In this document: piece after piece, positions 25,001-31,000 of the stretch
How the letters are laid out: each line of letters begins with the position of its first letter
Position numbering within the stretch: the first letter of the stretch is position 1
Origin: a virus
Lineage: Duplodnaviria > Heunggongvirae > Uroviricota > Caudoviricetes
Length of the DNA: 64,000 bases
Strand: one strand, 5' to 3'
Virus record (IMG/VR): IMGVR_UViG_2721755728_000011
Position numbers: made by a program

Positions 25001-28000
25001 TGGTCGTCGGTGTACTGCGGCTACTGTCGTTTCGTTGCGGCACTGCTGCCTCCTTTATCACTGGCCGGATCGGTATCAAATACCAGGTCCAGCTTGCGGT
25101 TTTCATCAATTTCGGCCTTGCGCCGACGTTTGACATCATCCGGATTACGACCACCTGCACGTACCCAGTCTGATTCTGTCGCCGCTCCACCACGAATCTG
25201 GATTTTCCAGGCCTCAGCCTCCTTAACAGGGTCAATCCACGGCATCACCGGTCCGGAATACACCGCGGTATACAGTGAAGATCGGTCAAGATCGCGGGGT
25301 AGCCTGATAACACCGGATGCCACAGCCTGTTTCAGCCAGGCACGATACATCGGGCGGGTGACGGCACCAATAAACCAGTCCTGCAGGATCAGGTAGCCAT
25401 CAGTGGATTCAACCAGCTCCTGACGCTGGGCGCTGTAAGTGCCGTTATAGTTGCGCGCTGTACTGGAAAAACTCAGACGACTGCCCGCCGCCACGGCACG
25501 CAACTGAGCATTACGAAAAGTTTCAAGGTTAGGATTTGGGCGATCCGACTTCACCATTCCGATTTCTTCGCCGGGTTTCAGATCGTCGTAAATAATGCCT
25601 GGCTGAATGGTAAGCTCGCGTTCATTCTCCTTGCTGTCATTACCATCCGTTTCATAGCTCTGTCCGTCGCCTTTCCGGATGTACATCCCCAGAGCAGCGG
25701 CGACCCTTGCTGCAGTCAGCTCAGAATCTTCATACTCTTTCAGGGCGCTGAGGCGGATCAGCACACCGGACAATAAAGACGTCCCGCGCATCTGGTGCAG
25801 ACGGCGAACAAATTTAAGATGCAGCATTCGCTCTGCATCCACTTCTTTGGTTTCCATCTGCCGTCCGGATACAGGACGACTTTTATACACCAGATATTTT
25901 TCGGGACGCCCCCAGTCATCAACAAACACGCCCTGATTCAGCCTGTTGCTCTCATCACTGGTCATGGGAATAAAGTCCGGCTCGAGCGCCTCCAGCCAGA
26001 AATGAACACCGGCAGAAGGCGTCAGGCTGTTTATGCGCCCGGAAACCATCTGGGCAAACACCTCACCATCGCGCAGCCAGGTACGCAGCATCAGACGTTC
26101 CAGCATCGGACGGGTAAACTGCCCGGTGACCTCCGGACTGACAGACCATTCACTCCATCGGGTACGTATCTCCGCAGCCAGGTCACGGGCAATGGCCCCA
26201 TTGCGTAATACCGGATGTGGCTCGACAATAATCCCGTTTTTCCCCACCACCCGTTCTTCCAGCTTGTCAAATACACCAATGACCAGATCGTGGTTGTTAT
26301 CAAGGTAACGAGCCTGCTCACGTAACGACACGGCCCCGTACTGGCTTAACTGGTCGGCAGTTCGGTTCTCCCGTCGGGCTTTGTGTGTCCGCGTCGTTTT
26401 TACGGCCTCATAAGCCTGGATCACCGCACGGGAACGCAGCCTTGCCGCTTTCCATCCTGGTGAAAAAACGCCAATCACATCATCAAGAATTGCCATCAGA
26501 ACCTCGCCAGCCGGTACCCGGGATGCCCCCGTCGTCGTGTAATCAGAGCCGCAAGGCGGCGCTCCCACTCCTGCCGCCCCTGCCGGATCTCAGATAAGTT
26601 TTCCATGGTCATCTGCTGACCATTAAAAGTGACGGATTTTCCGTCCAGCACCGCCATTTCAGCTTCCGTATAACGCTGAATCATGGCTTCAATATCATTC
26701 TGATTCATAACCATCCTCCGGAAGTCAGCCAGGGGTTAACATCGTCAGTTACTGTTTTCTTCCGTTTTTGTTTTTTAACAGGCGTGGATACCGGTTCCGG
26801 TGAGGGTGACGGTTCGGTACTGTCCGGGACACACTCCAGCCAGGTTTCCCGGCTCGCCCACTCCGGTGCATCCGGCCAGCGGATCTTTTCGTATCCATGC
26901 AGAATGACCAGAGCCTCGGCATACACCATCAGGTCAAAAGCTTCGTTGGCACCGCGACCCGGCTTACTCCATTTCCCGTCACTGCTCCGCTCTTCATACG
27001 TCAGTTCGTCGTAAAACCAGCTCCCCAGCCAGTCAGGGAAATGCACATAGCCGGGACCTGGCGAGTCACGCCATAACGCGTTATTCACCCGGTCTTTCAG
27101 GGCATCCGTCTGAAGAAGCCAGAGCGGCACATCACCTGCGGCCTGCGCCCGTCGGCCCGTTCGTCCGGTGTTATCAGGGAATGTACGGGTGATCAGTTTT
27201 GCTCGCCGGATGCTGTCGCCCTTAAACAGGTAAATACGTTTACCAAGGCCATCACGACGGCAACGACGCCAGAATTTATAGGCATTATCAGTGACCCCGT
27301 CTTCACCGCCGGAGTCCACCGCCATTGCCATCAGTCGCATTTGTTGAGAAGGGGCGGAGGCCAGCGGCCAGCTTTTATGAAAAACATCCGTCAGCAGGAC
27401 ATCCCAGTCTTCCGGATAGCTGGCCGGATCAATTCGCTGGCTCTCCCCGTCGCTGTCACCGCGCAATGACTGCGTGATGTTGTAACGATCAATAATCCAG
27501 CGTTCGCCACGGCTGCCATAGCCCGTTACCTGAACCACAAAACGGCGATGACGTCCCGCCTGCACATCCACTGTCGCCACAAGGAAATTAACGCCATCCG
27601 GCACACTGCGGGAAGGAACTGGCTCTGCCCGCTGCTCAAGCAGTTCACTTTTTCGTTGCTCCATGCTGGCGCGGGGAAGATAAGGTAATCCCCAGTCGGT
27701 ATTGATAACCGTCTTGAGTGTTTCTTCACTTCCGGTTGTCTCGTATTCCTGTTCTGCAGTAAGCAGTTTGTAAACGAGTTGCGAGAGTGTCTGGTAAGCA
27801 GCTGCCGGACCCTCCATCCAGAATGACGCAATACGTGAGCGTCGGGGATCACCATAACGACTGCCATCCGCATTGATGGATTCACCATCCCGCAACCAGA
27901 CCCCACGTCCGTTCAGCTCACGTTTTTGTTCAGGCATAATCCGTCCTGAACAGGAAGGACACTGAATATAAGCCGCCTCACTTGCCAGCACAGGATCGGC

Positions 28001-31000
28001 AATATCACGGAAACCAGCAACCACATCGCCGCAGGGCTGAAAATACTCACCACAGTGTGGACAGGGCCAGTACCAGCGACGGCGATCACCACGGTTATAG
28101 AGCGACAGGATCCCCGTGGTTGGTGGAGCCTCATGCGGTGAAGTCCGTCGCCATTTCACATCCTTCACATCCCTGCCGGGGGAACTCTCCACAAGCGTCA
28201 TACCGCTGGACATAAATGTGGTGGTACGTTTTGAGGCAAGAGAGAAAGCATCCCCCTCGCCATCAATATCTTCCGGAAAACGGTCATAATCCGTCAGCGC
28301 GACGCATTTATAATCTGATGAAGGACATGATATTGACTGACGGCCAGCCGATTTTCAGGTAGTTGCCAGCAAGGAATGTTCTGTCATAAACGTTGTTGTC
28401 ATTTTTGTTCGGACTCAGGCGACTGACCACTTCCGGGCTGACGCGAAACGTTCTGGCGAGTCGTTTTTTGGAGTGTTCGCGGGCTTTTTCCTCCGTCATC
28501 TGAATGATCAGCATATCAGCAGGATCGCAAATCACGTTGTAAATCACCCAGCCGTCAATCAGGCCGATAGTCTTGCCGGTTCGTGCCGGGCCAACAAATA
28601 TCACTGCGTCGTATTCACGCGAGGCCAGGCAGTTCATAGGCTCAATAACATACGGTGCCACCAGCGGATCCCACGGGACTGAGTTCCCTGCCCCCATGGG
28701 CACCCGCATATACTGAGCAACGGCATCAGCAACCCGCATTCGTCTCGGTGCGCGAAGGATATAACCTGAATCGGTTCGTGCTGCCTTTGCGGTTTCCTGA
28801 TTCAGCATTACTCCTCCTGCTGTAATTCCTCCTCATCATCCGCACCTGCTTCAGTCACCCGCAGGGCTATCTGATCGCGCAGATCATCAATAATGGACTG
28901 AACACGGCTCACAGCGGCAGGCTGCAGACCGCAGTCACGTTCCAGAATATCCGGTAATGTCTCCAGCACCTGCACGACCGCTTTTGCCCAGATGGCAAAC
29001 TCCCGTCTGACATCACTGGCCGGAATGAGTTGTGCCGTTTCCTGTTCGAACTTAAGACGCTCACGTTCAGACTGATACCAGGCTTTGCGCTCATGCGCGT
29101 CCATTTCGCCTTCTGCAACCGGCGGTGGCAATGCCAGAAATGCCGACACAATATCAACCACCCGATAAAGCTTGAGGTTGCTTTCATGCCCCCCTGCAAC
29201 GGGTAGATTTTGCAGCCTTGCCGCAGCAGTCTGGCGATGTACACCTGACAGTGCCGCCAGTTGACTGATATTCAGCGTCAGATTTTTTAACTCTCGATCC
29301 ATACCCGCTCCAGAATGTTTTAAACATGCATCTTGCGAACAACTTTAGGCAAACGGTGTTAGTGATGAACAAAAAACAATCAAAATCGACACCATAAAAA
29401 TAAAACCACTGTAATATCAATCTATTACAGTGGTGGTGATGACGAATGAAATTTCAAAAACTAGCCTTTTTCCGCGACGCTCCCGCCCCGTGGCAGGCCA
29501 CCCCACCGGGAGGACCCGTCAGCCTGACAGCTCTGACGAACGTCTGATACAACGCCTTGCATGAATGGCATCGGGATAATCCAGAAAGGCATAGCATCGT
29601 GCCCACAAGAATCTGTGTAAGTGTCCTGTTTCTTCCACCCACGCACAGGACTGGCGAGCATGAGGGACAAACCCGCGAACCATAAACGCGGTAAAAACCC
29701 GGTGTGCATCGTTTTTGATTATTCCCGCACACTCGCGCAGAAGGAGTTCCCCGTCGGGCTACGGTCTCTGTTAATACGGGAATACGGCGACGATACAGCG
29801 CATGATGTGTCAGGCTTGAATACCTTTATCCGTTAAAAGGGATATCAGTTAAGCTATCCCGTGTAGGGTATAAGCCATTATCAAAGCCACTCTGTAGGGA
29901 GTGGCTTTTGTAATGGCAATAAAAAGCCCCGCGAATGCGAGGCTAAATCCTGGTATTTGTAATGACTGGCTCTTATCTCAACGCAGCCCCTTACCGCGCG
30001 CAAGATACTCAATATCAAGCATCAGCAATGAGATGTTTAATCTGGATTCACTCCAGAAGTGATCACCATCCTGTCTACAGAGCCAGATGTGAAGGATGAT
30101 GAGTAAAATTATCGCTATCATCGAAGGCATTGCGTCCTGATGTATTCCTGAAGCGTTCTCAGTGCTGTTTGGTCGCGGATAATTCCGTCCCGGATACCGA
30201 GAACGTTTCGTCCAGCAACTGGAGAGAGTTCGACGGTGGCATCATTGCCCATGCCGGAGGCGCTGGAGGTTTCGGCTGAGGATGGCACAGGGCATTTTCC
30301 TTTGACGAACACCCGACCACCATTATCAAGCTTGCGCCGAAGAGCATCATTTTCAGCTTTCGCATCAGCTAACTCCTTCGTGTATTTAGCATCGAGTGCA
30401 TCAGCAGAACGCTGGCGCTGCTGCATGTCAGTAATGGTGGCGGTCGCCTGCTTCAGCTCACTGACTTTTTTATCTCGCTGTTCTTTGTAGGCGATGGCGT
30501 TATCACGGTAATGATTGACCGCCCACGACAGGCAGACGATGATGCAGATAACCAGAGCGGAGATAATCGCGGTTACTCTGCTCATTGTTGCCCCCACAAA
30601 CAGACTTCACGCTCAATCTCACGACGAGTCATCAGGCCTTTCCATTGCTTACCGCCAGCGTATATCCAGCGACGTAGCTGGTCACATGCGCCTTTGATAT
30701 CGCCCTGGTTTATTTTGCGAAGAAGCGTCGATGTTCTGAAATTGCCAGCACCCACGTTGTAGACGAACGAGTAAAGAGCGCCGCGCGTTGTTTCCGGTAT
30801 ATCGACTTTGATGTACGGGTTAATTTGTCTGGCAACCGTGGCAAGGTCTTTATTCAGGAGGGCTTTGCATTCTGCTTCGGTATACGTTTTACCGAGCATG
30901 ATGTCTTTTCCGGTGTGTCCGTGACATACAGTCCATACGCCAACGATATCTTTGTATGGTATGTAGCTGACACCTTCCAGGCCATCGTCACCACTTGGGC

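Follow-up and report, generated by a model that had tools for sequence, protein, structure and literature searches.

A private one-base insertion splits the large terminase gene of prophage 1 in IMGVR_UViG_2721755728_000011 between two reading frames

Organization of the terL locus

The Caudoviricetes record IMGVR_UViG_2721755728_000011, analyzed here over a stretch of 64,000 nucleotides (the window), carries in its prophage 1, a lambdoid E. coli prophage, a gene for the large subunit of terminase, terL, that is divided between two open reading frames (ORFs). The gene occupies positions 26705..28808 on the minus strand and measures 2104 nucleotides (nt), versus 2103 nt in intact copies. Its N-terminal ORF (28308..28808, minus strand) has 166 codons, the first 162 of which specify native residues and the last four an out-of-frame FIRL peptide closed by a TAA stop codon (28310..28308). 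This ORF contains the Walker A P-loop GPARTGKT (amino acids 73-80; 28569..28592, minus strand), which aligns to KSARVGYS at residues 76-83 of the lambda-type TerL of HK630. The C-terminal ORF (26705..28213, minus strand) has 502 codons counted from M199 of the native protein and encodes the end of the ATPase domain, the CPHCG motif (28063..28049) and the nuclease domain. Between the two lies an orphaned stretch (28214..28320, minus strand) made of native codons 163-198, which includes the segment CVALTDYD (28306..28283); codon 162 itself spans the site of a one-base insertion at 28321..28322.

The initial annotation had described the gene as split over two frames at these positions, and the sequence agrees with it. 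The ORF listing places the two parts in different frames of the minus strand, with the P-loop in the first and CPHCG in the second. Translation of the C-terminal frame finds it open upstream as far as a TGA codon (28357..28355), leaving an overlap of 47 nt (28354..28308) between the two frames. Finally, Pfam assigns positions 2-124 of GpA_ATPase to the N-terminal ORF (E 7e-31), and positions 163-247 of the same domain followed by the whole of GpA_nuclease (1-294 of 294; E 7e-86) to the C-terminal ORF. Since the Pfam domains continue from the first ORF into the second, the pair represents a single gene cut in two rather than chance ORFs. Both the ATPase domain with its P-loop and the C-terminal endonuclease domain that define the GpA family (PF05876 + PF20454) are recognizable, but the single uninterrupted frame that should encode them is broken at 28321/28322. 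The terL of prophage 1 is a GpA-family member by descent and, as written, a pseudogene. Its surroundings are those of a packaging and head module, organized as in annotated relatives: the small terminase subunit gene lies upstream (28808..29302, minus strand; DUF1441 family, phrog_141), is intact, encodes 164 amino acids (aa) and overlaps the terL start with its stop codon, while the portal gene (25021..26568) and then a protease/capsid fusion gene follow downstream.

Alignment to intact homologues, which the initial annotation had proposed as a way to find the indel, locates it at 28321/28322. The coding strand reads ATGTCC-T-TCATCAG, with TT (AA on the plus strand) in place of the single T of all homologues; it is the sole gap in the alignment with the two intact copies of Escherichia coli C3 and 1EC213. 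The suspicion that a homopolymer was at fault fits this site poorly, as the change from T to TT makes a run only two bases long. Deletion of the extra T yields an ORF of 700 aa with one terminal stop. The gene is 99.7% identical in DNA to the intact terL of E. coli C3, from which it differs by this one gap. More broadly, 2,057 E. coli records match the 2104-nt stretch; the top ones are 99.5-99.7% identical over 2103 nt and have the underlying terminase annotated as a single coding sequence; known intact TerL proteins differ from the repaired protein by 0-2 residues. The initial annotation had offered a frameshift, either inactivating or a sequencing error, as the explanation of the split, and homologues in which terL is a single gene bear out that framing.

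Absence of the insertion from related sequences

An 81-nt query centered on the insertion site was compared by BLAST with 5,426 complete E. coli genomes. In the 1,356 that have the locus, 80 of the 81 columns match and an identical match never occurs, so that the insertion is found in none of them. A 35-mer containing the extra T was sought in 185,579 species-representative genomes, IMG/VR and a metagenome collection, none of which contains an exact match; the control 34-mer lacking this T is present in at least 120 viral contigs. Among 82 full-length homologous copies of terL, 76 are intact ORFs of 2103 nt and six (7%) are disrupted, each at a different place; the insertion is seen in none of the 82, and none is split at the same point. 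An exact-sequence look-up in a collection of 15 billion proteins returned neither ORF product. In phage genome records, TerL is encoded as a single ORF, and the repaired protein is 99.7% identical to that of vB_EcoS-569R4, with lower values for mEp043 (79.6%) and Gifsy-2 (70%). Because the insertion is private to IMGVR_UViG_2721755728_000011, the two-ORF layout is neither conserved nor programmed. Intact homologues sharing the same two ORFs, which would have overturned the view of a broken gene put forward in the initial annotation, are absent from both the 1,356 genomes and the 82 copies.

Broken copies of this gene seem to have left a trace in protein classification. The PHROG families of "unknown function" phrog_12089, 15657, 23163 and 20035 match only segments of an intact TerL (L003 18626-20728); it would appear that deposited terL fragments are numerous enough to have given rise to separate families.

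Predicted consequences for TerL and for packaging

The extra T after codon 162 would shift the reading frame and end translation four codons further on. The product would be a 166-aa fragment that retains Walker A and is deprived of the Walker-B-aligned segment, of the rest of the ATPase domain and of the nuclease domain. These motifs were placed by alignment to the lambda-type TerL of HK630 (YP_007112540.1), a sequence search of the PDB for a TerL structure on which to place them having given no match. In this alignment, CVALTDYD (aa 168-175), located just past the break, corresponds to the lambda Walker B VAGYDE at residues 174-179.

Expression of the remainder of the protein meets several obstacles. 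The C-terminal frame has no ATG, GTG or TTG codon upstream of native M199 (28213), reading of the sequence before this ATG found no Shine-Dalgarno-like element, and a consensus scan for an internal promoter returned nothing within terL above shuffle expectation. With no start before codon 199 and no ribosome-binding site, the C-terminal part of TerL is unlikely to be made. Moreover, residues 162-198, that is 37 residues including the Walker-B-aligned stretch, can be expressed from neither ORF, and it is for this reason that terL as written is a null allele, which gives no active ATPase-nuclease even as two pieces. These same observations bear on the idea of a functional split terminase, whose two ORFs would be made separately and assemble into an active enzyme. 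Each ORF does hold recognizable domain parts, but the lack of the Walker-B-aligned segment from both, the missing ribosome-binding site of the C-terminal ORF and the failure of any homologue to be split at the same point make this the least probable of the explanations considered, and we rejected it on account of the 37 orphaned residues.

Recoding could in principle bridge the gap. A +1 frameshift of the ribosome within the 47-nt overlap, whether programmed or tolerated, for instance at AUC-AGA or UUA-UAA-A, would produce near-native TerL at a low level, and a +1 slip anywhere in 28354..28308 would restore a protein of full length, changed at no more than a few residues just ahead of the Walker-B-aligned strand. 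A rare AGA codon and the stop codon do stand at the end of the N-terminal ORF. Against this, the layout is conserved in none of the 1,356 genomes and 82 copies, no P-site codon of the overlap is able to re-pair in the +1 frame, direct reading of the sequence found no Shine-Dalgarno-like stimulator of the prfB type upstream, and there is no match in Rfam. The known motifs of programmed frameshifting, whether CUU-UGA with a Shine-Dalgarno-like element as in prfB or a slippery heptamer, do not occur in the 47-nt overlap, and the long A or T run that transcriptional slippage would need is likewise lacking. Recoding in this sense is therefore very improbable. Slightly more remote still is a mixed situation in which the extra T is real and unprogrammed +1 slippage at AGA or at the UUA-UAA stop supplies a little full-length TerL, so that packaging would be throttled rather than abolished.

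TerL is essential for DNA packaging. Given this role, prophage 1 as written would be unable to cut and package its own DNA.

Other lesions of prophage 1 and their age

The initial annotation had regarded the head and tail genes of prophage 1 as otherwise complete, a description that does not hold for the head-decoration (cement) gene (22605..22929, minus strand; DUF2190, PF09956, phrog_122). This gene has a second private frameshift, an insertion at 22695/22696 (CAGCT-T-GACTAA on the coding strand) that brings a stop at 22690 and leaves 79 aa versus 107 aa; it is absent from all 1,737 E. coli genomes in which this locus is present. A third one-base insertion, at 21336, turns TT into TTT on the plus strand relative to E. 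coli C3, the closest reference, and lies between two tail genes with no coding effect. All three insertions of the window are located within 7 kb of one prophage, and each lengthens a short run. They are confirmed by pairwise alignments; automatic flagging of private positions missed them, since BLAST may gap either one of two doubled bases. The remaining head and tail ORFs are as long as the corresponding annotated ones. Disruption relative to near-identical intact orthologues, together with a further independent lesion in the same prophage, is what would be expected of a pseudogene.

All four substitutions that distinguish the terL of the window from both references (C3 and 1EC213) are synonymous in the repaired frame, and each substitution variant of this gene recurs in one or more other alleles among the 82 copies, the insertion alone being private. 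The ~13 kb examined in the head and packaging region contain six private substitutions, and four of the five that were scored are synonymous. This pattern indicates that the lineage has been under purifying selection until essentially now, and the frameshift is consequently either very recent or not real. One tail protein carries a private R-to-C change; a look-up of its exact sequence, aimed at the source strain or a sibling, found no record of it.

The tape-measure gene (16760-19855 in the window; L003 8694-11760) is intact and in a single open frame. Its counterpart in C3 is annotated as frameshifted in both prophage copies, with one extra T in a T run that matches window position 18043.

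Architecture of the window

The window starts at ssrA, the gene for transfer-messenger RNA (~40-402), and its positions 1-10881 are identical base for base to a prophage of E. coli C3 that adjoins ssrA. This stretch leads from a point shortly before ssrA, through BRO-N, ImmA/IrrE, GIY-YIG, tail-fiber and Lom genes, into gpJ. Identity to C3 then falls inside gpJ, where 10882-12000 contains 26 substitutions, a pattern suggestive of a recombination breakpoint within this tail-tip gene. Between tail genes K and L, a segment of about 1.6 kb (14112-15706) that is absent from the closest head-module relative carries a P22-type antirepressor gene (P22_AR_N + P22_AR_C; 14112..15158, minus strand) and an Arc-like repressor gene (15347..15706, plus strand), which form an immI-like module within the tail operon.

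Two junctions interrupt the continuity of the window. At 34863/34864, the 3' 395 nt of the minus-strand DUF968 gene in prophage 1 face the equivalent portion of a plus-strand DUF968 gene belonging to a second prophage, thereby creating an inverted repeat (34468-35259) with arms of 395 nt that are 95% complementary and separated by a 2-nt spacer; this junction falls exactly where the two prophage types become ~99% identical. At 52670/52671 (52497-52776), the tape-measure genes of prophage 2 (plus strand) and of a third prophage (minus strand) meet head-to-head, again at the point from which these types are 100% identical. The segments joined in the window are found in C3 at 3.49, 2.96, 0.27 and 4.61 Mb. 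From the sequence, both junctions look like the ends of draft contigs that stopped at collapsed repeats and were joined, rather than like biological joints. Because prophage 1 is joined to another prophage at 34863/34864, its early region is outside the view and its overall completeness cannot be judged.

Real mutation or sequencing error

We give an even chance to the reading in which the extra T is a real, very recent and unselected inactivating mutation in a prophage that is starting to decay. The general accuracy of the window speaks for it. No indel is found across the ~40 kb of the window that have near-identical comparators: there are no differences from C3 in 10,881 nt, one substitution and no indel relative to OkiPb01675 in 17,808 nt, and seven substitutions and no internal indel relative to C3 in 11.3 kb. 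The three insertions are gathered in one module of one prophage, where a second frameshift hits the head module, and broken copies of terL are common in public data, as illustrated by the six of 82 mentioned above.

Several observations weigh against a real lesion. The extra base may be present only in the record. Natural mutation in E. coli produces roughly one indel per ten substitutions, and three private insertions against six private substitutions in ~13 kb represent a high share of indels. All three insertions are of one character, each doubling a neighboring base in a short run. The predominance of synonymous changes among the private substitutions that were scored (four of five) is hard to reconcile with two frameshifts, unless these arose very recently. 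Lastly, the window appears to have been stitched together from draft contigs.

The competing explanation, to which we grant a little under an even chance, is that the extra T and the extra bases at 22695/22696 and 21336 are errors of sequencing or assembly, in which case both terL, with its 700 codons, and the head-decoration gene would be intact. The private nature of the insertion and the absence of the truncated proteins from any collection are in keeping with it, as is a repaired TerL lying 0-2 residues from known intact proteins; three like insertions superimposed on mostly synonymous substitutions are the pattern of a functional phage under selection overlaid with errors. Both junctions of the window fall at boundaries of identity between prophage types, as is typical of draft contig ends, the source was probably a draft assembly, and a terminase of this type can occur up to five times per genome, which complicates the building of a consensus. 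Conversely, the rest of the window is very accurate in the comparisons with C3 and OkiPb01675, and three errors within a single 7-kb stretch would be unlikely at an even error rate. Platform errors concentrate in long homopolymers, and the T-to-TT change is not such a context. Taken together, a real mutation and a base-calling error are about equally likely.

Significance

An insertion of one base, private and non-programmed, in a gene family as well known as this one is ordinary and already known in kind, and its importance extends little beyond annotation. If the base is real, prophage 1 cannot package itself, is also deprived of a complete head-decoration protein, and could spread only with the help of a co-resident prophage, a helper-dependent condition already documented for a defective prophage of E. 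coli O157 Sakai (PMC2669165). Should the base be an error, terL ought to be annotated as intact. Either way, the locus deserves the flag "frameshifted; verify" and should not serve as evidence for a split or recoded terminase.

Comparison with known terminases and defective prophages

The closest relatives of the terL of prophage 1 are those of phage vB_EcoS-569R4 (ON470598, URC09511.1), whose protein is matched by the repaired one at the 99.7% level over all 700 aa, and of the C3 prophage (WP_000934123.1), the DNA comparator used above. They have the same neighbors, with a DUF1441-type small terminase gene upstream and a small W-like gene, the portal gene and a ClpP-protease/major-capsid fusion gene downstream, but their terL is a single ORF of 2103 nt, whereas that of the window has an extra T after codon 162. 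Lambda gpA, represented by HK630 TerL, is a more distant member of the same Pfam family with the same domain order, and its Walker A, Walker-B segment, CPHCG and nuclease motifs all align; it differs in its identity of only ~25%, in its length (641 aa versus 700 aa) and in its small subunit, of the Nu1 type instead of the DUF1441 type.

Under the reading of a real lesion, prophage 1 would be packaged only if a co-resident prophage provided a matching terminase in trans. The window encodes two other large terminases, both lambda-type and associated with a Nu1-type small subunit, at 41496..43421 (plus strand; 25% identical to the TerL of prophage 1) and at 62055..63983 (minus strand). Since the lambda-type terL has diverged and relies on the other type of small subunit, either of them is unlikely to act as a helper. 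A helper with a terminase of the type found in prophage 1 may exist elsewhere in the genome; in E. coli C3, terL of this type is present in three copies.

Such a dependence has a parallel in Sp4 of E. coli O157:H7 Sakai, a terminase-defective prophage. Its DNA is reported to be packaged nonetheless, with the Sp14 terminase as the most likely agent, the cos site of Sp14 being nearly identical (Asadulghani et al. 2009, PMC2669165). Sp4 and prophage 1 are both lambdoid prophages with their own terminase disrupted, but in Sp4 an insertion sequence (IS) element breaks the small subunit gene nu1, whereas in prophage 1 a one-base insertion affects the large subunit.

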